From assembly GCA_052386335.1 (NCBI GenBank), contig JBQTKH010000105.1, positions 6,368 to 70,367 on the forward strand: DNA of 64,000 nucleotides, written 5' to 3'. The position numbers and the translations under genes were made by a program. Numbering within the stretch: the stretch's first letter is position 1; each line of letters opens with the position of its first letter. The notes below the pieces were generated by a model. The model saw only the letters and a program-made list of their open reading frames with translations, did not search any database and had not been told where the DNA came from. Origin of the DNA: Microthrixaceae bacterium (GTDB lineage: Bacteria; Actinomycetota; Acidimicrobiia; Acidimicrobiales; VFJN01). Shown here piece after piece: positions 4,913 through 47,275 of the stretch.

Positions 4913-6082
4913 TCAGGTCCGGGGCACGCGGGGCAGCCCGGCGCCGAAGAGTGCGATGAGGTCGCGCTGGACCTCGTTGACGCCACCGCCGAAGGTGAGG
5001 ATGAGGCAGCCCTGGAAGGCCCGCTCGAGGCGGCCCGCTAGCATGGCGCTGGTGGACGACCTCGTGAGGTAGGCCGACGGTCCGAGGATCTCCATGAGCA
5101 GCCGGTAGGCCTCGGTGTAGAACTCCGTGGCGAACACCTTCGTGGCGCTCGAGTCGGCGGGGTTCGTGCCTGCCGCGGCGGCGACCTTCCAGTTGATCAG
5201 CTTCACGAACTCGAGCTTGGCGTACACCCGTGCCAGGTTGAGCTGCACCCACTCCTGGTCGGCCACTCGCCGGCCATCCGGGAGCTTGGTGTCCTGCGTC
5301 CAGGCGAGCACCTCGTCGAACACGCGCTCCACCATGCCGGGCGGACCGAGCGAGACCCGCTCGTAGTTGAGCTGGTTGATGATGAGATCCCACCCGCGGT
5401 TGAGGCCGTAGACGAGCATGTCCTCACCCACGCGCACGTCGTCGTAGAAGGTGTTGTAGGTGCTGGCGTTGACCATCGTCTCGATCTTCGAGTACGAGAA
5501 GCCCGGGTCGGTGGTGGGCACGAGGAAGATGGAGATGCCCCGGTGCTTGCTCGCCTCGGGGTCGGTGCGCACCGCCAGCCAGATGTAGTCGGCGTAGCTC
5601 GCGAGCGAAGTGAAGATCTTCTGCCCGTTGATCACCCACTCGTCGCCGTCCTTCATCGCCTTCGTGGTGAGCGAGGCGAGGTCGGTGCCGGCGTTGGGCT
5701 CCGTGTAGCCGATCGAGAAGTGCAGCTCGCCGGCGAGGATCTTGGGCAGGAAGAAGCGGCGCTGCTCCTCGGATCCGAACTCCATGATCGTCTTGCCGAC
5801 GGTGTTGATCGACAGGAACGGGATGGGGGCGCCGGCCCGCCAGGCCTCGTTGAAGAAGATGAACTGCTCCACGTCGGTGCGGCCCTGGCCGCCGTACTCA
5901 GTGGGCCAGCCGATCCCGAGCCATCCGTCCCGGCCCATCTTGCGGACGGCCTCGAGACACGCCGGGCCGCCGGTGTCCCCGTGGGCGCACTCCGCCTCCA
6001 CCTCGGGCGTCATCAGGTCGGCGAAGTACTGCCGCAGCTCCCGCTGGAGCGCCTCCTGCTCCGCTGTGTAGGCGAGGTACAC
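4913..6082 (-). CDS. acyl-CoA dehydrogenase (FadE-like)
   Basis: 389-aa ORF with GTG start 9 nt after a GGAGG. ACAD motifs YTEPNAGTDLASL and QLNYERVSLG (Glu at the IVD-type base position). Lies 11 nt upstream of a second ACAD gene. Confidence 0.9.
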   Translation of the reverse strand: MYLAYTAEQEALQRELRQYFADLMTPEVEAECAHGDTGGPACLEAVRKMGRDGWLGIGWPTEYGGQGRTDVEQFIFFNEAWRAGAPIPFLSINTVGKTIMEFGSEEQRRFFLPKILAGELHFSIGYTEPNAGTDLASLTTKAMKDGDEWVINGQKIFTSLASYADYIWLAVRTDPEASKHRGISIFLVPTTDPGFSYSKIETMVNASTYNTFYDDVRVGEDMLVYGLNRGWDLIINQLNYERVSLGPPGMVERVFDEVLAWTQDTKLPDGRRVADQEWVQLNLARVYAKLEFVKLINWKVAAAAGTNPADSSATKVFATEFYTEAYRLLMEILGPSAYLTRSSTSAMLAGRLERAFQGCLILTFGGGVNEVQRDLIALFGAGLPRVPRT

Positions 6083-9658: not shown

Positions 9659-11189
9659 TCCCCGTCGCACCACCATCGGGCGCCGACGACGCCACCTGGC
9701 ACTGCTGATGGGCGCCGCGGCCCTGCTCGGCATGGGCGGCGGTGTCGCGGCCACCGCGCAGGACGCCCAGCCCACCGGCCCGACCGGTGACGAGCTGTTC
9801 GGCGTCTACCAGATGGAAGCGCGCGGGCTGGGCGTGCAGGGCACCTACCGGATCGAGGGCCTCATCCCCGGCGACACGCCGATCCTCGACCTGGCGCTCC
9901 CCGAGACCGTGGCCCGGCTTGCGTCGGGACCGTCCGGCTACGGACTCGCCTCCCTCGCCTATCCCGGCGGCATCATCGCTAACTTCGGAACGCTGGTCAC
10001 CCAGTCGGGCGGGCCCGGTGACGACCTACCGCCCTACCCGATCAAGGCCGAGGCGTTCTACCCGAGCGGTCCCACCACCGCTGAGCAGTCCCAGCAGGGC
10101 GGCAGCACCCAGAAGGTGGTGACCAGCGATCGCGCCGTCCACTCGGTGGGCTCGTTCCCGGGCATGGATGCGCCGCCCCTCGTGAACGTCGGGAGCATCA
10201 CCTCCGCGTCGCGCAGCTCCATCGACGGAGAGCTCGCCGTCAGCCGCAGCCGTGTCGTGCTCGGCAACGTGCGCATCCTCGGCGGTCTCATCACCATCGA
10301 GTCGCTCACCACGGACCTCGTCGCCGCCCACAACGGCCTCACCGGCTCGACCGCGGGCGGGACCTCCACCTCTGGCGTTCGCTTCCTCGGGCTCGACGCC
10401 GCGTTCACCGACGATGGGTTGGTGCTCAAGGAGGCACCGCCCACCGAGGGTCCCGGTGCGCCCCTGGGCGGAGCGCTCGGCGGTGCGGCGGCACCGCTCA
10501 GCAGCCTGACCGGTCCGGTGCAGGAGCAGCTCAATGCCGTGCTCGCTCAGGCCACCCCCAGCCTGGACGAGGTCCTCGCGCGGGCGGGGATCCACATCGA
10601 GCTGCTCTCGCCGCGCGATGCACAGGTCGACAGCGGCGCTGCCTCGCGCACCACCTCGGGCCTGTCGGTGACCTTCAGCTACGAGGGACGGGAGCAGGAG
10701 GCGATGGTGGAGCTGGTCAACAGCATCCCCCCTGAGCTCAAGCCGAACTTCGGGCCGATCCCGAACCCCGTGACCTTCCTCGCCGAGAACCACATCTACG
10801 GTCTGTCCCTCGGCCCGGCGAGCGTCAGCGCCCTGGCCACCCCGGCATTCGGATCCCTCGACCTGCCCATCGACGGAGATCTCCCAGCGCAGTTCCTTCC
10901 CGAGATCCCCGTGTCGGAGATCACCATCGACGGGTCCGGCTTCACCACCCGCCCCGCACCTCTCCCCGCGCCGTCGGCGGGCTCGAGCACCGGCGAAGCC
11001 ATCGACGGCGAACCGATCTCGAACGCGGTCGGCGCGGCCGTCCCGGCCATCCTCGTGGCGCTCGCGCTGCTGCTCTCACCGCTGTTCGGCCTGGGATCGA
11101 GTCGGCTGGCCGACAACGTGCTCGCGCCCGTCACCACCTCCTGTCCGATCGGGCTCGATGAGCCCCCTGCGCCCCCGAGGCCGTCGTGA
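9645..11189 (+). CDS. hypothetical secreted protein with C-terminal membrane anchor
   Basis: 514-aa ORF. N-terminal Arg-rich signal (GRRRRHLALLMGAAALLGMGGGVAATAQDA, possibly Tat-type). C-terminal TM helix (AVPAILVALALLLSPLFGLG). Start overlaps the permease stop by 14 nt. No family recognised. Confidence 0.7.
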   Translation: MRSPDPRRTTIGRRRRHLALLMGAAALLGMGGGVAATAQDAQPTGPTGDELFGVYQMEARGLGVQGTYRIEGLIPGDTPILDLALPETVARLASGPSGYGLASLAYPGGIIANFGTLVTQSGGPGDDLPPYPIKAEAFYPSGPTTAEQSQQGGSTQKVVTSDRAVHSVGSFPGMDAPPLVNVGSITSASRSSIDGELAVSRSRVVLGNVRILGGLITIESLTTDLVAAHNGLTGSTAGGTSTSGVRFLGLDAAFTDDGLVLKEAPPTEGPGAPLGGALGGAAAPLSSLTGPVQEQLNAVLAQATPSLDEVLARAGIHIELLSPRDAQVDSGAASRTTSGLSVTFSYEGREQEAMVELVNSIPPELKPNFGPIPNPVTFLAENHIYGLSLGPASVSALATPAFGSLDLPIDGDLPAQFLPEIPVSEITIDGSGFTTRPAPLPAPSAGSSTGEAIDGEPISNAVGAAVPAILVALALLLSPLFGLGSSRLADNVLAPVTTSCPIGLDEPPAPPRPS

Positions 11190-11839
11190 CCACCTCCACC
11201 TCCCCCGCCGCCAAGCGAGCCGCGCCGCTGCACGCCGTCGCCGACGAGGCCGTCGAGGTCGCGCCGGTCGAGGTCGTGCATGCCGCGATGAGCGATCCGG
11301 CCGTCACCGCGGCCCGCGACCAGCGCTTCGCCGATGGCGTGCGCACGCTGCGCGTCGGGGGCGCATCCTTGAAGCTCGAGGAGCACCTCCTCATGGTCCT
11401 CGGCGGCGTGATCGCACCGCTCGGGCTCGTCGTGGTGCTGCTCGGCTGGTGGGGGGCCGCCCACAGCCCCTACGTGTTCGAGCAGCTCCCCTATGTCATC
11501 TCGGGTGGCCTGCTCGGGGTGGGCATGATCTTCCTCGGTTCGTTCCTCTACTTCACCCACTGGTTGACGCAGCTGGTCAAGGAGCAACGCCTCCAGTCCG
11601 CGGCGGTGATCGAAGCGATCCAGCGACTCGAGGACAAGCTGGTCGCGACCGGTGACGTACCGCCGATCAGCGCAGGAACGAACGGCACCGGACCGAGCGG
11701 GGGGGCCGATCTCGTTGCCACCGCTCGCGGCACGATGGCCCATCGTCGCGACTGCGTGGTCGTCGCCGGGAAGTCCGGGTTGCGGCGAGTCGGGGCCGAC
11801 GACGGCCTCGACGTCTGCAAGCTGTGCGGCTCGGGCTAA
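11186..11839 (+). CDS. hypothetical membrane protein (2 TM helices, C-terminal His/Cys cluster)
   Basis: 217-aa ORF with ATGA overlap to the upstream gene. Two predicted TM helices (LLMVLGGVIAPLGLVVVLLGWW; VISGGLLGVGMIFLGSFLYF), a coiled-coil-like segment, and C-terminal HRRDC...CKLCGSG. Confidence 0.65.
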   Translation: MTTSTSPAAKRAAPLHAVADEAVEVAPVEVVHAAMSDPAVTAARDQRFADGVRTLRVGGASLKLEEHLLMVLGGVIAPLGLVVVLLGWWGAAHSPYVFEQLPYVISGGLLGVGMIFLGSFLYFTHWLTQLVKEQRLQSAAVIEAIQRLEDKLVATGDVPPISAGTNGTGPSGGADLVATARGTMAHRRDCVVVAGKSGLRRVGADDGLDVCKLCGSG

Positions 11840-19360: not shown

Positions 19361-19842
19361 ACGCAGTCGGCGCAGAGGCGGTGCTTCGCGTCCGCGAGCT
19401 GGCTCGGGTGCTTCACGAGGAAGCAGGACTGGCAGACGAACTCACCGGGGCGCTTGGGCTGGATCCGGCCGGTCCCGTCAGCGCGCTCCTCCGGCTCGGG
19501 AGCGGCCTCCTCCTCGTCGTCTTCCTCTTCCTCGGCTGCCGCCAACCGATCCTTCAGGATGGCGTCGAGGTCGGCCTCGACATCGTCGGGGTCGGCGTCG
19601 TCATCGTCCTCTGCGTCGTCGTCGTCATCGTCACGCTTGGCCTTGACCGGCGCGACGACGGCGTCGACGTCGTCTTCGTCCTCGTCGTCCACGACAACGA
19701 CGTCCTCATCGAGGTCGTCGTCCACCACGACCAAGTCGTCCACATCGAGCTCGTCGTCGTCGTCGAGGTCGTCCGGCTCCTCGTCGAGGTCGTCCGGCTC
19801 ATCGAGCTCTTCTTCCTCGATGACCTCGTCGTCGTCAGCCAT
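19357..19842 (-). CDS. DUF4193-like protein (hyper-acidic N-terminus plus C-terminal zinc ribbon)
   Basis: 161-aa ORF. The first ~115 aa are mostly Asp/Glu. C-terminus is PGEFVCQSCFLVKHPSQLADAKHRLCADCV (CxxC...CxxC), as in actinobacterial DUF4193 proteins. Confidence 0.8.
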   Translation of the reverse strand: MADDDEVIEEEELDEPDDLDEEPDDLDDDDELDVDDLVVVDDDLDEDVVVVDDEDEDDVDAVVAPVKAKRDDDDDDAEDDDDADPDDVEADLDAILKDRLAAAEEEEDDEEEAAPEPEERADGTGRIQPKRPGEFVCQSCFLVKHPSQLADAKHRLCADCV

Positions 19843-42351: not shown

Positions 42352-44121
42352 TCAGAGGTACTGGCCGGTGGCGACCCGCTCGATGGAGCGACCACCGCGG
42401 GGCTCGGCATCGCTGGTGTGCTGGACGATCGTGCGCACGTAGACGATCCGCTCGCCCTTCTTGCCGGAGATCTTGGCCCAGTCGTCGGGGTTGGTGGTGT
42501 TGGGGAGGTCTTCGTGCTCCTTGTACTCCTGGTGGATCGACTCGATGAGGTCGTCCACCTGGATCCCCTTGGTGCCACCGTCGAGCAGGCGCTTGATGGC
42601 CAGCTTCTTCGCCCGCCGCACGATGTTCTCGATCATGGCCCCGGACGAGAAGTCCTTGAAGTACATGATCTCCTTGTCGCCGTTCTGGTAGGTGACCTCG
42701 AGGAACTGGTTCGCCTCGTCGGTGCGGTACATCTCCGCGGCGGTGGTCTCGATCATCGCCTGGACGGCCTTCTCGCGGTCGCCTCCGCCGAGGCTGGTCA
42801 CCTCGGCCTCGTCGAGGGGGAGGTCGGCGGTGAGGTAGCGGGCGAAGATCTGCGCGGCAGCCTGCTCGGTGGGGCGCTCGATCTTGATCTTCACGTCGAG
42901 GCGACCAGGCCGCAGGATGGCGGGATCGATGAGGTCTTCGCGGTTGGACGCGCCGATCACGATGACGTTCTTGAGCGACTCGACGCCGACGATCTCGACG
43001 AGGAGCTGCGGCACGATCGTGCTCTCCATGTCGGAGCTGATGCCCGTGCCGCGGGTGCGGAACATGGAGTCCATCTCGTCGAAGAAGATGATGACCGGCC
43101 AGCCCTCTTCGGACTTCTCCCGGGCCCGCTGGAACACCAGACGGATCTGGCGCTCGGTCTCGCCGACGTACTTGTTGAGCAGCTCGGGGCCCTTGATGTT
43201 GAAGAAGTACGACCGAGCGGTGTCGCCGGTAACCGCCGCGACCTTCTTGGCCAGGCTGTTGGCGACGGCCTTCGCGATGAGCGTCTTCCCACAACCCGGG
43301 GGGCCGTAGAGGAGGATGCCCTTGGGTGCCGGCAGCTTGTGCTCCAGGAACAGCTCCTGGTGCAGGAACGGCAGCTCGACCGCGTCGGCGATCTGCTCGA
43401 TCTGCTCGTCGAGGCCGCCGATGTCCTCGTAGTCGATGTCGGGCACCTCCTCGAGAGCGAGGTCCTCGACCTCGGGCCGAGGCAGCTTCTCGAGCACGAG
43501 ACCCGAGCGCGGGTCGAGCAGAAGGGTGTCGCCGTTGCGGAGCTTCGTGTCATGGAGCTCGTCGATCAGCTCCACCACGCGCTCCTCGTCGGCACGCCCG
43601 ACGATGAGCACGCGGTTGCCGTCGAGGCGCTCCTTCATCGAGACGACCTCACCCGTGAGGTCGGCCCCCCGCGACAGGACGACGTTCAGCGACTCGTTGA
43701 GCACCACCTCGTCGCCGCGGCGCAGCGGGTCGTCACCCAGCTCGGGGTGCACCGCCACCCGCACCTTGCGACCGCCGGTGAACACGTCGACGGTGCCGTC
43801 GTCGTTGCTCCCGAGCAGCGTGCCGTAGGCCGACGGCGGCTGCGTGAGCTTGTCGACCTCCTCGCGGAGCGCGGCGATGTGGTCACGCGCTTCCCGGAGG
43901 GTGTAGGTGAGCTTCTCGTTCTGGGACACGGCCTGCGAGAGCTGGCCCTTGGTCTCGAGGAGGCGCTCCTCGAGGGTGCGGACGCGCTTGGGCGCGTCCT
44001 GCAAGCGCCGACGAAGGGAGATGACCTCTTCCTCGAGCTCGAGGGTGCGCGCCGCGTCGGTCGCGTCCGCCTCGCTCGCCGGCGCTGACGCCTGATCGTC
44101 CGACTCCGTGACGGGGACCAC
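42352..44121 (-). CDS. arc: proteasome-associated AAA+ ATPase ARC/Mpa
   Basis: N-terminal coiled coil, OB domains, Walker A GPPGCGKT, Walker B IIFFDEMD, and the C-terminal docking motif ...ATGQYL. GTG 44121 is proposed as the start. The ORF is open to ATG 44175, so the start is uncertain. Confidence 0.93.
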
Positions 44122-44261
44122 CTCCTGTGCATCGTGCCTGCGCGGGACCCTACACCTGTGCTCCCCCACCGCCACGCAGGGTTTCCCCCGTAGTTGCCGC
44201 GTTAATTCGTCGGCGCGCTAGGGTGGAGGACACCCCGATTCCTACACGAGGTAGCCCCACC

Positions 44262-44501
44262 ATGAAGGTCTGGATCGACCAGGATCTCTGCACCGGCGAC
44301 GGACTCTGCGAGGAGATCGCCCCGATCGTGTTCACCCTCCTCGACGACGGCCTCGCCTACGTCAAGGACGGTGCCAAGGTGCTCTCCGATCCGGGTGGGG
44401 CCGAGGCGATCGCGCCCGTGCCCGCCGGGCAGGAAGAGGCCACCATCGAGTCCGCTGAAGAGTGCCCGGGCGAGTGCATCTTCATCGAGGTCGACGGCTG
44501 A
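44262..44501 (+). CDS. small ferredoxin (single [3Fe-4S]/[4Fe-4S] cluster type)
   Basis: 79 aa from ATG 44262: MKVWIDQDLCTGDGLCEEIAP...ESAEECPGECIFIE (CxxxxxC...CP pattern). Divergent from arc. Confidence 0.8.
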   Translation: MKVWIDQDLCTGDGLCEEIAPIVFTLLDDGLAYVKDGAKVLSDPGGAEAIAPVPAGQEEATIESAEECPGECIFIEVDG

Positions 44502-44508
44502 AGTAGCC

Positions 44509-44631
44509 CGTGCTGCGGGCGTCGCTGGGCGTCGTGCGTCTTCGGGCGTCGCTGCGCTCCTGCCTACGACTGCGCTGCTCCTGCCTCCGCACGTGCCTCC
44601 CGGCGACCGGCGAAGCCGGATCGCCTCCGGC
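44509..44631 (+). repeat. 123-bp intergenic repeat element, copy A
   Basis: 116/123 identical to 45971-46093. Begins 7 nt after the ferredoxin TGA. Ends in the hairpin GGCGACCGGC-GAA-GCCGG(A)TCGCC. Contains internal short direct repeats (GGGCGTCGCTG x2; CTGCGCT(GC)CCTGCCT x2). Confidence 0.85.
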
Positions 44632-44660
44632 CAGCGGCTGAGGCGCCCTTACGCAGGAAC

Positions 44661-44684
44661 GATGGGGCCCCGATGGGCCCCATC
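44661..44684 (+). terminator. GC-rich hairpin, candidate intrinsic terminator (no U-tract)
   Basis: GATGGGGCCC-cgat-GGGCCCCATC is a perfect 10-bp stem with a 4-nt loop, followed by TTCGCGTTC. Lies between the ferredoxin gene and the MgtE-like gene. Confidence 0.4.
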
Positions 44685-44760
44685 TTCGCGTTCGGGGCCG
44701 TGTCGGCGGTAACGTGCTCGCCGTGCCGCGCCAGCCAACCACCTCCTCGGGACGGCCCCC

Positions 44761-45963
44761 ATGGCCTCCCACCGCCTGCTGCCTGGTGCTGATGCCCGGC
44801 AGGGGCTCGTCGCGCTCGCACTGAACTCCTCCACGAGCCTGGTGGCGGGCGCCATCTTGGGCTCGCTCACCGAGACCTTCGAGCGCCGACCGGGCCTGCT
44901 CCTCCTCGTGCCTGCCGCCATCGGTCTGCGCGGCAACGTGTTCGGCTCGCTCGGCAACCGGGTGTCCACGTCGATCCACGCAGGTGAGCTCCACCTCCGG
45001 TTGCGCCGCTCGACGATGCTCGGCCAGAACGTGCTGGCAGCCGGCGCGCTCACGCTCGGGATGTCGGTCGTGCTCGTGGCGCTCGCGGCCCTCATCTCGG
45101 TCGGGCTCGGCCTCGGATCGACGATCGGCCTCGCCGACCTCGCCCTCGTGTCGGTCGGGGGCGGTGCCCTGGCCTCGCTCCCCGTGCTGGCGGCCACGCT
45201 CGGGCTCGCGGCGGGCGCCGTGCGCTTCGGGTGGGACCTCGACAACGTGACCGCGCCCCTGGTGTCCACCCTGGGCGATGTGCTCACGCTGCCGGCGCTC
45301 TGGCTCGCCACCGGTCTGCTCGGCTTCGGGATCGTCACCTCGGGCGCTGGATGGGTGCTGGCCCTGCTCGCCCTGGGAGCCCTCGTCGCCGGCATCGCCA
45401 CGTCGTGGCCTCAGGTGCGCCGGATCGTCCGGACCTCGATCCCGGTGCTCGTGCTCGCGGGCGTCGTGAGCAGCCTCGCCGGCGTCGCCCTCGAGCACCG
45501 CCTCGTGACCTTCACGGCCCTCCCGGCGTTGCTGATCCTCGTGCCGGCGCACCTCTCGAGCGCGGGTGCGCTCGGGGGGATCCTCTCGGGCCGGCTCTCG
45601 AGCACGCTGCTCCTCGGCCTCGCCCCGCCGACCGCGCTCCCGGCTCACGCGGCCCGCGCCGACCTCAGCTTCGTGGCCGCGCTGAGCGTCCCGGTGTTCG
45701 CTGCCAACGGCCTGGGGGCCCACCTTGTGGCGCGAGCACTCGGCCAGGAGTCGCCGGGTCTGGCCCAGCTGGTGGCCGCCTCGATGCTCGGCGGCGCCGC
45801 GGCGATGGTGGTGGTGCTCGCCATCGCGTACTACGGCACGATCGTCGCGGTCCGCTCCCACATCGATCCGGACACCTACGGCATCCCGATCGTGAGCTCG
45901 ACGGTCGACCTGGTGGGAGCGCTCACCCTGATCGTGGCGATCACCACGCTCGGACTGACCTGA
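44761..45963 (+). CDS. divalent cation (Mg2+) transporter, tandem MgtE-type membrane domains
   Basis: 400-aa polytopic ORF with an internally duplicated pattern (LVPAAIGLRGNVFGSLGNRVST... and LVPAHLSSAGALGGILSGRLSS...). Lacks the cytosolic MgtE N/CBS domains. Confidence 0.8.
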   Translation: MASHRLLPGADARQGLVALALNSSTSLVAGAILGSLTETFERRPGLLLLVPAAIGLRGNVFGSLGNRVSTSIHAGELHLRLRRSTMLGQNVLAAGALTLGMSVVLVALAALISVGLGLGSTIGLADLALVSVGGGALASLPVLAATLGLAAGAVRFGWDLDNVTAPLVSTLGDVLTLPALWLATGLLGFGIVTSGAGWVLALLALGALVAGIATSWPQVRRIVRTSIPVLVLAGVVSSLAGVALEHRLVTFTALPALLILVPAHLSSAGALGGILSGRLSSTLLLGLAPPTALPAHAARADLSFVAALSVPVFAANGLGAHLVARALGQESPGLAQLVAASMLGGAAAMVVVLAIAYYGTIVAVRSHIDPDTYGIPIVSSTVDLVGALTLIVAITTLGLT

Positions 45964-45970
45964 ACACATG

Positions 45971-46093
45971 CGTGCTGCGGGCGTCGCTGCGCCTCGTGCG
46001 TCTTCGGGCGTCGCTGCGCTCCTGCCTACGACTGCGCTGCTCCTGCCTTCGCACGTGCCTCCCGGCGACCGGCAATGCCGGCTCGCCTTCGGC
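45971..46093 (+). repeat. 123-bp intergenic repeat element, copy B
   Basis: 116/123 identical to 44509-44631. Begins 7 nt after the MgtE-like TGA. Terminal hairpin GGCGACCGGC-AAT-GCCGG(C)TCGCC: the stem is conserved while the loop and bulge differ. Confidence 0.85.
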
Positions 46094-46111
46094 TGACGCG
46101 GTGCCGGCCGG

Positions 46112-47275
46112 TCAGCTCAGGCAAGGACCGGTGTCGACCTCGCGACTGAGATCGCCCGCCAGCATCGGCAGCAGCTCTTCCACGTCGAGGGCGTACGCCA
46201 CTCCCGGCTGGTCGGGTGCGATCGCGAAGGCGACGCCCACGATCCGACCCTGCGCGTCGATCAGACCTCCGCCGGAGTCGCCCGGCGCCAGGCTCGACGC
46301 CAGGATCAGGATCTTGCGCTCGGTTCGCTCGCGGTCGTAGATGTCGCGCCCGGTGGCGGTGGTGGTGCGGCCCACCTCGAAGGGTGCGGCCCGCAGCGCG
46401 CCACCGCCGGGGTGGCCGAACACGGCGCCCGTCCCGCCCTGCTCGACGTCGACGATGGGTAGCGGCTGGCGGTTCAGGCCGGGCGCGTGGAGGATCGCGA
46501 GATCACGACGCGGGTCGAAGGCCACCACGGTGGCGCGCACGTCGGTGCCGTCGCTTCGCTGGACCACCGTCTCAGTCTCGCCGGACACGACGTGCGCGTT
46601 CGTCACGACGAGGTCGGTGCCGGCCACGAAGCCGCTCCCCTCCTGGATGCGCCGGCAGGCCACGCCCTCCACCTTGACGGTGGACGGCACGACGGCGTCC
46701 ACGACCGACTGAGGGATGCCGGTGACCGACGGTGGTGGCCCGAGGTCGGGCGCGGCGTGCAGGCCGTCGAACACGCTCGGGAACTGGTCGCCCCCCACCA
46801 GGCGGCTGAGCGTTGCCATCGTGTCGGGTGCGGGCGGAAAGGTCTGGTCGACCCACCTGGCCACCGCTGAGGTTCGGGCCTGCACCGCGAACCATCCAGG
46901 GACATCGGCCATGAGTGGCAGGAGCAGCCAGAGGCCCACGAGCACCCCTGCCGCGCCGGCGACAGCGCCCGCCCCGCGATCAGCGGAGCGCACGGTCGCC
47001 CCGGGGAGGGCCACGTGGGCACGCGCGCCGATGAAGAGCCCGAGGGCCTGCCCGATGAACGCCATGCCGAGCAGGACCCCCATCGTGATGAAGAGGAGCT
47101 GTGCGTCCGAGGCGTCCTCGACGGTGCGGAGCACCGGAGGGAGGATGAGCGCACCGACGACGGTCCCCGCGGCCATGCCGATCCACGAGGTGACCCGGGC
47201 GAGCAAGCCGAGCCGGTACCCACCGAAGGCGGCACCTACCCCAGCCGCGAGGACGAGGAAGTCGAGCGAGTTCAC
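46112..47275 (-). CDS. marP: MarP-type membrane-anchored serine protease (CvpA-like TM domain plus trypsin-like domain)
   Basis: 387-aa ORF. Four N-terminal TM helices, then an S1 protease with TNAHVV (His), RDLAIL (Asp) and GDSGGG (Ser). Confidence 0.88.
   Translation of the reverse strand: MNSLDFLVLAAGVGAAFGGYRLGLLARVTSWIGMAAGTVVGALILPPVLRTVEDASDAQLLFITMGVLLGMAFIGQALGLFIGARAHVALPGATVRSADRGAGAVAGAAGVLVGLWLLLPLMADVPGWFAVQARTSAVARWVDQTFPPAPDTMATLSRLVGGDQFPSVFDGLHAAPDLGPPPSVTGIPQSVVDAVVPSTVKVEGVACRRIQEGSGFVAGTDLVVTNAHVVSGETETVVQRSDGTDVRATVVAFDPRRDLAILHAPGLNRQPLPIVDVEQGGTGAVFGHPGGGALRAAPFEVGRTTTATGRDIYDRERTERKILILASSLAPGDSGGGLIDAQGRIVGVAFAIAPDQPGVAYALDVEELLPMLAGDLSREVDTGPCLS

Follow-up and report, generated by a model that had tools for sequence, protein, structure and literature searches.

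A gene that lies between two copies of the same sequence raises the question of whether the copies brought it there or came later to a gene already in place. This question is posed by a stretch of 64,000 nucleotides (nt), hereafter the window, from contig JBQTKH010000105.1 of a Microthrixaceae bacterium (assembly GCA_052386335.1), in which a 123-nt sequence follows the stop codons of two consecutive genes, the ferredoxin gene fdx and the gene of an MgtE-like divalent cation transporter (mgtE), and thus brackets the latter with direct repeats. The comparison with relatives described below shows that the MgtE-like gene is ancestral at this position and that both copies are young, lineage-specific insertions, the presence of the second being polymorphic among close relatives. 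The best explanation of the repeat is a small, lineage-restricted family built of slippage-prone sub-units (27 and 21 nt here, with a period of 72 nt elsewhere). With a confidence only a little above even, we favour an intergenic repeat of the interspersed kind, built like a minisatellite and passively carried in two 3' untranslated regions (UTRs), with Rho-type termination, protection of 3' ends and insulation of mgtE from the convergent gene marP as plausible side effects. In our analysis such a repeat resembles the mycobacterial interspersed repetitive units (MIRUs) or the BrickBuilt element more than a classical MITE (miniature inverted-repeat transposable element) or repetitive extragenic palindrome (REP); it is best filed in the general class of bacterial interspersed intergenic repeats, under no named family, and is a fairly ordinary kind of bacterial repeat.

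A repeat search of the window returned a single family of two copies, A and B (Table 1), which are 94% identical, lie as direct repeats at a spacing of 1462 and differ at seven positions (44528, 44531, 44587, 44612, 44614, 44620 and 44627). Each copy starts 7 nt past a TGA, that of fdx (44499-44501) and that of mgtE (45961-45963), and CTGAA stands upstream of both. In all of these respects our analysis confirms a preliminary description of the locus, which had been made from the sequence alone and had drawn attention to the pair, to its identity and to its placement behind the two stop codons. The similarity is far above chance (blastn E=1e-50): a 20-nt core of the repeat, sought with up to 3 mismatches, occurs twice in the window against 0.02 occurrences expected, and, when a 7-nt indel (CAGCGGC) is allowed, the similarity of the copies extends rightward to TGAsGCG (44639-44645 and 46094-46100). 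No third copy, exact or diverged, was found within the window by repeat search, blastn, nhmmer or a mismatch-tolerant scan. An assembly artefact could be ruled out, since an independent Logan contig of 1393 nt (L005) reproduces both junctions with site-specific variants. This contig begins within the end of copy A and stops within the start of copy B, carries A-type variants at the former end and B-type variants at the latter, and is identical to the window copies at every visible position (30/30 in A and 29/29 in B). Because L005 ends inside the two copies with the variants proper to each, both copies are present in its lineage.

The origin of the arrangement becomes clear from the same locus in relatives. 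The order arc-fdx-mgtE-marP-trmI is the same in L001, L002, L004 and L012, that is, in every relative fetched. In mgtE, the first three share about 81% nucleotide identity with the window and L012 about 90%; by the same measure the closest sequences form the tree (window,(L005,L012)), in which the window is about 90% identical to either of the other two, and these are 96.4% identical to each other. The spacer between fdx and mgtE is 259 nt long in the window and 123 nt long in L001 and L002; that between mgtE and marP, 148 nt in the window, has 13, 21 and 28 nt in L012, L004 and L002, respectively. The repeat occurs at neither site in L001, L002 and L004, while in L012 site B is empty (TGA-CCACGTCGGCCGG-TCA) and site A holds a short form of 75 nt. 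Since the relatives keep the gene order with short, repeat-free spacers, both copies are insertions into an ancestral gene order. Copy B is present in the window, its start is also seen in L005, and it is missing from L012, the sister of L005. The preliminary description had considered that the repeats might be the footprint of a duplication or insertion that delivered the transporter gene, and had itself named, as the observation that would speak against this, relatives carrying the gene at the locus without repeats. Such relatives exist, fdx-mgtE-marP being ancestral in L001, L002, L004 and L012, and the delivery of the gene is therefore refuted: the MgtE-like transporter was not brought by the repeats, and the most eye-catching reading of the locus is removed.

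The internal organisation of the repeat indicates how it changes. Copy A is composed of duplicated units, a tract rich in pyrimidines that contains three CCTCC motifs, and the terminal hairpin. A 27-nt unit (CTkCGGGCGTCGCTGsGC...) is duplicated at 44513-44539 and 44540-44566, and a 21-nt unit (GCTCCTGCCTmCG...) at 44556-44576 and 44577-44597; the internal short direct repeats mentioned in the preliminary description thus have spacings of 27 and 21 nt. On the + strand, pyrimidines are abundant and G is scarce in the second half of the element, where the GC skew is -0.2 to -0.29 and the AT skew -0.65 to -0.77. The short form at site A of L012 equals copy A of the window minus one 27-nt and one 21-nt unit, and the rest aligns with 74 matches and 1 mismatch. 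The sizes of the two units that L012 lacks are those of the internal direct-repeat periods, and the element therefore gains and loses units like a minisatellite. The terminal hairpin has, in both copies, the same stem of 10 bp with one bulge; alignment and folding agree with what had been described, with two of the substitutions between A and B in the loop, one in the bulge and none in the stem. The element had also been called structured, which holds for the terminal hairpin and fails for the element as a whole, whose fold on the + strand is no better than that of shuffled sequence (z -0.8 and +0.4 for the two copies). No second hairpin was found at the left end of the element.

A third site shows that the core is not confined to this locus. 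The sole contig matched in JGI metagenomes by a 20-mer from the conserved centre of the repeat, L006 (Ga0190275), ends in an array of 2.3 copies with a 72-nt period, which adjoins a MaoC-family dehydratase gene and is oriented opposite to the flanking genes; the last unit of this array is 96.7% identical to window positions 44536-44596 over 61 nt (E=1e-24). In relatives of this locus, L008 (88% nucleotide identity), L009 and L011, a gene for an abhydrolase lipoprotein follows MaoC, either immediately or at a distance of 81 nt, and no array is present. Since the core is present at an unlinked locus, it is interspersed, and a local duplication does not suffice to explain it. The sequence that L006 shares with the window ends at ...CTGCCTCCGC, before the hairpin, and the next hairpin is homologous to the native spacer of L011; in the same contig CTCCGGCTAG resembles the right border of the repeat in the window, a likeness that is probably coincidental, because this stretch too is homologous to the native L011 spacer. 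A further contig, P0122/L010, was dropped as a relative of the L006 locus because it carries a different MaoC paralogue. In total, three sites of the repeat were found, one behind fdx, one behind mgtE and one next to MaoC (L006), with empty homologous sites in L001, L002, L004 and L012 for the locus of the window and in L008, L009 and L011 for that of L006.

Wider searches added no site. Among 185,579 species-representative genomes, TGCCTACGACTGCGCTGCTC had 0 matches and CGTCTTCGGGCGTCGCTGCGC one chance match only, in a Hyphomicrobiaceae coding region (L007); scans of viral contigs and a distant search of a plasmid collection gave no match, and neither blastn nor an nhmmer family profile found further or diverged copies in the window together with about 110 kb of related loci. 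Dispersal in the manner of a REP or MITE, which had also been suggested in advance, agrees with the lineage-specific insertions and with the L006 array at an unlinked locus. It disagrees with the architecture, which has no terminal inverted repeats (a search of each copy with its flanks, seed 6, gave one 9-nt pair at chance level per copy) and no REP-type organisation, and it is weakened by the small number of sites and by copy B, which looks like a local copy of site A and not like an independent transposition.

Comparison with known systems places the repeat closest to two of them. According to PMC3184786, which summarises Supply et al. 1997, MIRUs are intergenic units of about 40-100 bp with empty sites in relatives and tetranucleotide direct repeats as flanks. 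The likeness extends to the occurrence in Actinobacteria, to the non-coding, GC-rich nature of the sequence and to units of tens of bases that stand singly or in tandem at several intergenic loci. Furthermore, the number of units varies between close relatives (2x27 + 2x21 nt in copy A against one each in L012, and 2.3 x 72 nt in L006), homologous sites are empty in relatives (seen here at three loci, a small number), a tetranucleotide direct repeat, here CTGA, flanks the filled sites, GC-rich inverted repeats are found within the element, and co-transcription with adjacent genes is predicted. MIRUs differ, however, in that their small open reading frames (ORFs) overlap the stop and start codons of operon genes, whereas our repeat has no consistent ORF and copy B lies between convergent genes; they also number 40-50 per genome, against the three sites known here. 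The likeness to MIRUs is one of description, and no sequence homology to them is claimed. BrickBuilt, a minisatellite-containing MITE of Porphyromonas gingivalis (PMC4596501), is likewise species-restricted and intergenic, and combines a spacer-less tandem array of a short unit in variable number with a non-repeated 'leader' and 'tail'; unlike our repeat, in which none were found, it has small inverted-repeat ends, and it is present in 19 copies per genome and has promoter activity.

The resemblance to other elements found behind genes is more partial. The GC-rich extragenic hairpins of enterobacteria, REPs and bacterial interspersed mosaic elements (BIMEs), also occur in 3' UTRs and between convergent genes and are conserved in sequence across strains; they can stabilise the upstream mRNA and mark 3' ends. 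REPs are imperfect palindromes of 20-40 nt whose head is conserved; they number in the hundreds and are associated with RAYT transposases, whereas in our repeat the core conserved between loci is non-palindromic and the hairpin is site-specific baggage that differs in L006. With intrinsic terminators the repeat shares a stable GC hairpin past the stop codon (-18.4 kcal/mol), but the distance of this hairpin from the stop is about 100 nt, no U-tract comes after it (the bases past the stem read TCCGGCC in A and TTCGGCT in B) and it is succeeded by a stronger native hairpin at 44661-44684. The latter is outside the repeat and is kept in L001, L002, L004, L005 and L012, whether the element is present or not; it is probably the original terminator-like hairpin at the 3' end of fdx or a leader element of mgtE. 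The repeat, in short, has neither the terminal inverted repeats of a MITE nor the palindromic unit of a REP, nor the ORF overlap of MIRUs, nor any feature of an attC site.

On these grounds the following history can be proposed for the passively carried repeat. The element would first have arisen or landed just past the fdx stop codon and would then have grown by duplication of its internal units; subsequently, a block of about 135-140 nt comprising the core together with the hairpin of site A and some bases of the flanks would have been copied 1.46 kb downstream into the convergent mgtE/marP spacer. Copy B is regarded as a copy of the site-A region because A and B share both the hairpin and the TGAsGCG border, while the L006 core has a native hairpin of its own. 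Given the CTGA brackets, the copying may have involved a short target duplication or microhomology-mediated template switching, with which it is compatible; a transposase-driven mechanism is not supported. The copies would form the 3' UTRs of fdx and mgtE and be passively transcribed, most likely with a modest effect. With its C/U-rich, G-poor, unstructured tract and its stable GC hairpin, the element would promote Rho-dependent termination and protect the 3' end, and it would insulate mgtE from marP, a pair otherwise separated by 13-28 nt between stop codons.

Several points weigh against this explanation. Only three sites were found, so that the 'family' rests on a small sample in which 64 kb of the source genome are covered, and there is no true copy in the species-representative genomes and a single contig in the JGI metagenomes. 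The ends of the element and any target duplication are ambiguous, as two models of the borders, discussed below, fit about equally, and neither a transposase nor a terminal inverted repeat nor any other signature of mobility was found in the copies with their flanks or among the ORFs of the window. The roles in termination and insulation are deductions, with no U-tract, no terminator-like match and an L006 array inverted with respect to the genes. Finally, the site-A copy is better conserved than its surroundings: between the window and L012 the aligned element has one mismatch in 75 positions, as given above, and the linker with the right flank 115 matches and 19 mismatches (Fisher p=0.0023), in lineages that differ at 29% of the 4-fold sites in mgtE and 38% in marP, and a conservation of this kind is not predicted for neutral or selfish DNA.

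The last point leads to the alternative that survives best, which we regard as possible though clearly the less probable account: a functional RNA module of the 3' UTR that selection maintains. One form of it would be a terminator or insulator, made of a C-rich, rut-like tract and a pausing or protective hairpin, another a small RNA (sRNA) derived from the 3' UTR, in which single-stranded CCUCC/CUCCU motifs, similar to an anti-Shine-Dalgarno sequence, would pair with the ribosome-binding sites of target mRNAs. In either form the module would have been duplicated for its usefulness behind both genes. Conservation of the site-A copy despite a divergence of its lineages of 29-38% at 4-fold sites and of about 14% in the non-coding flanks, the identity of the visible ends of L005 to the window, the pyrimidine-rich tract with its three CCTCC motifs and the placement of both window copies, co-directional with the upstream gene and 7 nt past its stop, all fit this possibility. 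In addition, the four substitutions in the last 30 nt of copy B (4/4) miss the 20 stem positions (p=0.008 in a post hoc test); with the conservation of site A, this pattern of substitutions hints at constraint, and a role of the 3' UTR in termination, in insulation or as an sRNA is possible. These hints are offset by other features, however. Copy B is dispensable in L012, the relatives at about 81% identity have neither copy, and the 27-nt and 21-nt units are gained and lost freely; the structure is limited to one modest hairpin with a whole-element fold equal to shuffles, all relatives already possess a native hairpin of greater strength behind fdx, and the L006 array is inverted relative to its neighbour genes. 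Besides the missing U-tract, a scan of 43800-46600 found no promoter-like or terminator-like site, at gathering thresholds no Rfam 15 family matched anywhere in the window, and, with E up to 10, only chance-level matches were obtained in 44400-46200 (13.7-21 bits, E 0.5-8.7). A tRNA scan found no tRNA in the element, and a tRNA- or tmRNA-derived sequence was rejected after it.

It is unlikely that the element is a non-autonomous one mobilised by a transposase (a MITE, a REP or a palindrome-associated transposable element, PATE, of the IS200/IS605 type) which targets CTGA, and thus TGA stops, and regenerates the stop on insertion. Such a mechanism draws its appeal from the borders. Both filled sites are bracketed by CTGA, with the stop codon at the left and ...GGCTGA at the right (second TGA at 44639-44641 and 46094-46096), and the offset of 7 nt from the stop is the same at both. 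Furthermore, fdx ends in ...EVDG-TGA (GGC TGA) in the window and L012 and in ...EVD-TGA in L001, L002 and L004, so that the element-carrying lineages have gained a Gly codon GGC (window 44496-44501; L012 2251-2256) exactly at the insertion junction. The bulged base in the subterminal hairpin, the polymorphism of filled and empty sites among close relatives and the copy at an unlinked locus would also suit a transposase. On the other hand, no transposase gene was found near the repeats among the window ORFs, the 64 kb contain no other copy, terminal inverted repeats and a left-end hairpin are missing, and the sequence shared with L006 ends before the hairpin. Moreover, a 7-nt linker without homology stands between the left CTGA and the shared sequence: the linkers of A and B differ at 6/7 positions while the rest is 94% identical, and they look like native flank, which would put the insertion point after the linker and not at the stop. 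The linker of copy A agrees with its L012 orthologue, CGAGACC, at 3 positions and disagrees at 4; that of copy B is the same in L005 and resembles the CCACGTC of the L012 empty site at 4/7 positions. This empty site fits two border models about equally well. In one of them the insertion occurred at the stop with duplication of TGA, the linker being part of the insert, against which stands the difference of the two linkers at 6/7 positions; in the other it occurred 7 nt past the stop, the right TGA belonging to the insert, in keeping with the partial match of ACACATG to CCACGTC. At the right borders, the CAGCGGC after copy A is a diverged tandem copy of the preceding CTCCGGC, perfect as CTCCGGC CTCCGGC in L005 and L012, the TGAGGCG that follows matches the TGACGCG after copy B, the second TGA of site A reads TTA in L005 and L012, and the native spacer GTGCCGGCCGG beyond copy B is comparable to CGGCCGG in L012.

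The two preceding ideas can be combined in one that we hold to be less likely still, namely a mobile 3'-UTR module that homes to TGA stops through the target CTGA, regenerates the stop and is retained by selection because its RNA influences translation or termination, whether in cis or in trans. This would account for the 7-nt offset common to both sites, for the frame that they share and for the additional Gly codon of fdx, and the RNA would consist of several single-stranded CCUCC motifs resembling an anti-Shine-Dalgarno sequence and of the bulged GC hairpin. If true, such a module would be a self-spreading regulatory 3' UTR, a kind of which, to our knowledge, no description exists in Actinobacteria.

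Improbable, too, and ranked a step lower, is a one-off segmental duplication of the 3' flank of fdx, with the likeness to L006 explained by a slippage-prone sequence that was moved once by recombination or horizontal transfer. The window contains just two copies, 1.46 kb apart and in the same orientation, copy B carries the site-A hairpin and right border, and the genome-wide scans were almost empty. Yet L006 has the core at an unrelated locus, expanded there into an array of 72-nt period, and site A is itself an insertion with respect to the relatives at about 81% identity.

On its sequence the repeat is unlikely to be coding: six-frame translation gave no ORF with start and stop consistent in A and B, the substitutions between the copies are non-synonymous in 7/7 cases in one open frame and synonymous in at most 3/7 in the others, and a protein search with the element and the L006 array, both translated in six frames, returned 0/8000 candidates at E<=1 among 5.8 billion proteins. 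A recombination site or scar (attC- or cassette-like) left by insertion of the MgtE-like gene, or else a small peptide or a read-through extension past the stop codon, is very improbable, although direct repeats do bracket a single gene, both copies stand in the same frame relative to the upstream TGA and the periods of 27, 21 and 72 nt are all multiples of three, for mgtE is in place without repeats in L001, L002 and L004 and the order is also kept in L012, there are no attC core sites and no imperfect hairpin as long as the element, and no ORF consistent between the copies, no synonymous excess in any frame and no match of any frame to a protein was seen. An integron attC site or gene cassette in the strict sense was rejected, with no GTTRRRY or RYYYAAC at the ends, a fold equal to shuffles and an mgtE conserved at the locus.

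The pair documents a young intergenic repeat in a poorly studied, uncultured lineage (Microthrixaceae, Acidimicrobiia), in which empty, short and expanded-and-copied stages can be followed. Repeats of this kind are useful as markers for strain typing, similar to variable number tandem repeats (VNTR), they break short-read assemblies (the ends of the Logan contig fall exactly at the repeat), and, where convergent genes are tightly packed, they can give rise to new 3' UTRs between them. What is unusual is limited to the above-background conservation of the orthologous copy and to the stop-adjacent placement with a shared frame.

Table 1. Features of the fdx-mgtE-marP region, in window coordinates (position 1 is the first letter of the window).
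Feature	Position	Strand	Remarks
Ferredoxin gene (fdx)	44262-44501	+	79 aa, single-cluster ferredoxin, Fer4_15/Fer4_13 (Pfam)
Linker from fdx stop to copy A	44502-44508	+	AGTAGCC
Repeat copy A	44509-44631	+	123 nt, after fdx stop
Terminal hairpin of copy A	44602-44625	+	GGCGACCGGC GAA GCCGG A TCGCC; -18.4 kcal/mol, z -1.6
Right border of copy A	44632-44645	+	CAGCGGC, then TGAGGCG
Native strong hairpin	44661-44684	+	GATGGGGCCCC-GA-TGGGCCCCATC; -27.5 kcal/mol, z -4.4
MgtE-like divalent cation transporter gene (mgtE)	44761-45963	+	400 aa, two PF01769 stretches (Pfam)
Linker from mgtE stop to copy B	45964-45970	+	ACACATG
Repeat copy B	45971-46093	+	123 nt, spacer between convergent mgtE and marP
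Terminal hairpin of copy B	46064-46087	+	GGCGACCGGC AAT GCCGG C TCGCC; -18.4 kcal/mol, z -2.35
Right border of copy B	46094-46111	+	TGACGCG, then native spacer GTGCCGGCCGG up to marP stop
MarP-like membrane serine protease gene (marP)	46112-47275	-	Colicin_V + Trypsin_2 (Pfam); convergent with mgtE

The neighbouring genes belong to a conserved setting. The upstream neighbour encodes the proteasomal ARC/Mpa ATPase, and fdx, mgtE and marP sit between this arc (Mpa) ATPase gene and trmI, in a Pup-proteasome neighbourhood whose order is kept across metagenome-assembled genomes (MAGs) of Acidimicrobiales. The MgtE-like protein has 2603 homologues, the top matches being 400-aa proteins of Acidimicrobiales/Microthrixaceae; no Pfam family besides PF01769 was found in it, and it thus has no cytosolic N-terminal or CBS domain. 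Look-ups of the exact MgtE-like and ferredoxin proteins gave no record, but a cluster member from an NCBI Microthrixaceae MAG (P0241, MGQ0432896.1) is 100% identical to the window protein, so that the window derives from this MAG or from a strain identical to it. On the - strand, an ORF of 495 aa (44482-45969), rich in Arg, Glu and His, is antisense to the entire mgtE and reaches both copies of the repeat; it looks like a typical shadow ORF of high-GC DNA, not a gene.

Two further observations concern the relatives. In L001 the mgtE-marP spacer holds an unrelated insert of 325 nt (11204-11528) with a tandem duplication of 81-82 nt (81% identity) and a CCGCGCC-rich tail, and in L002, the sister of L001 with 96% nucleotide identity in mgtE, this spacer has only 28 nt (5019-5046); it seems that lineage-specific repeats have repeatedly landed or expanded in the mgtE-marP spacer. 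In the ferredoxin gene of L004, an in-frame TGA (GAG TGA ATC, at about 9827-9829) stands where the window and the other relatives have TGC, the codon for the Cys of ...CPGEC..., and the protein is called as 71 aa, shortened at this TGA, which could be a sequencing error, the mark of a pseudogene or a Cys/Sec substitution. Elsewhere in the window, the whole-window repeat search detected at 19553-19801 dense degenerate GTCGTCGAGG-like repeats phased at 9 and 12 nt; they resemble a coding stretch of the minus strand that is acidic and of low complexity.

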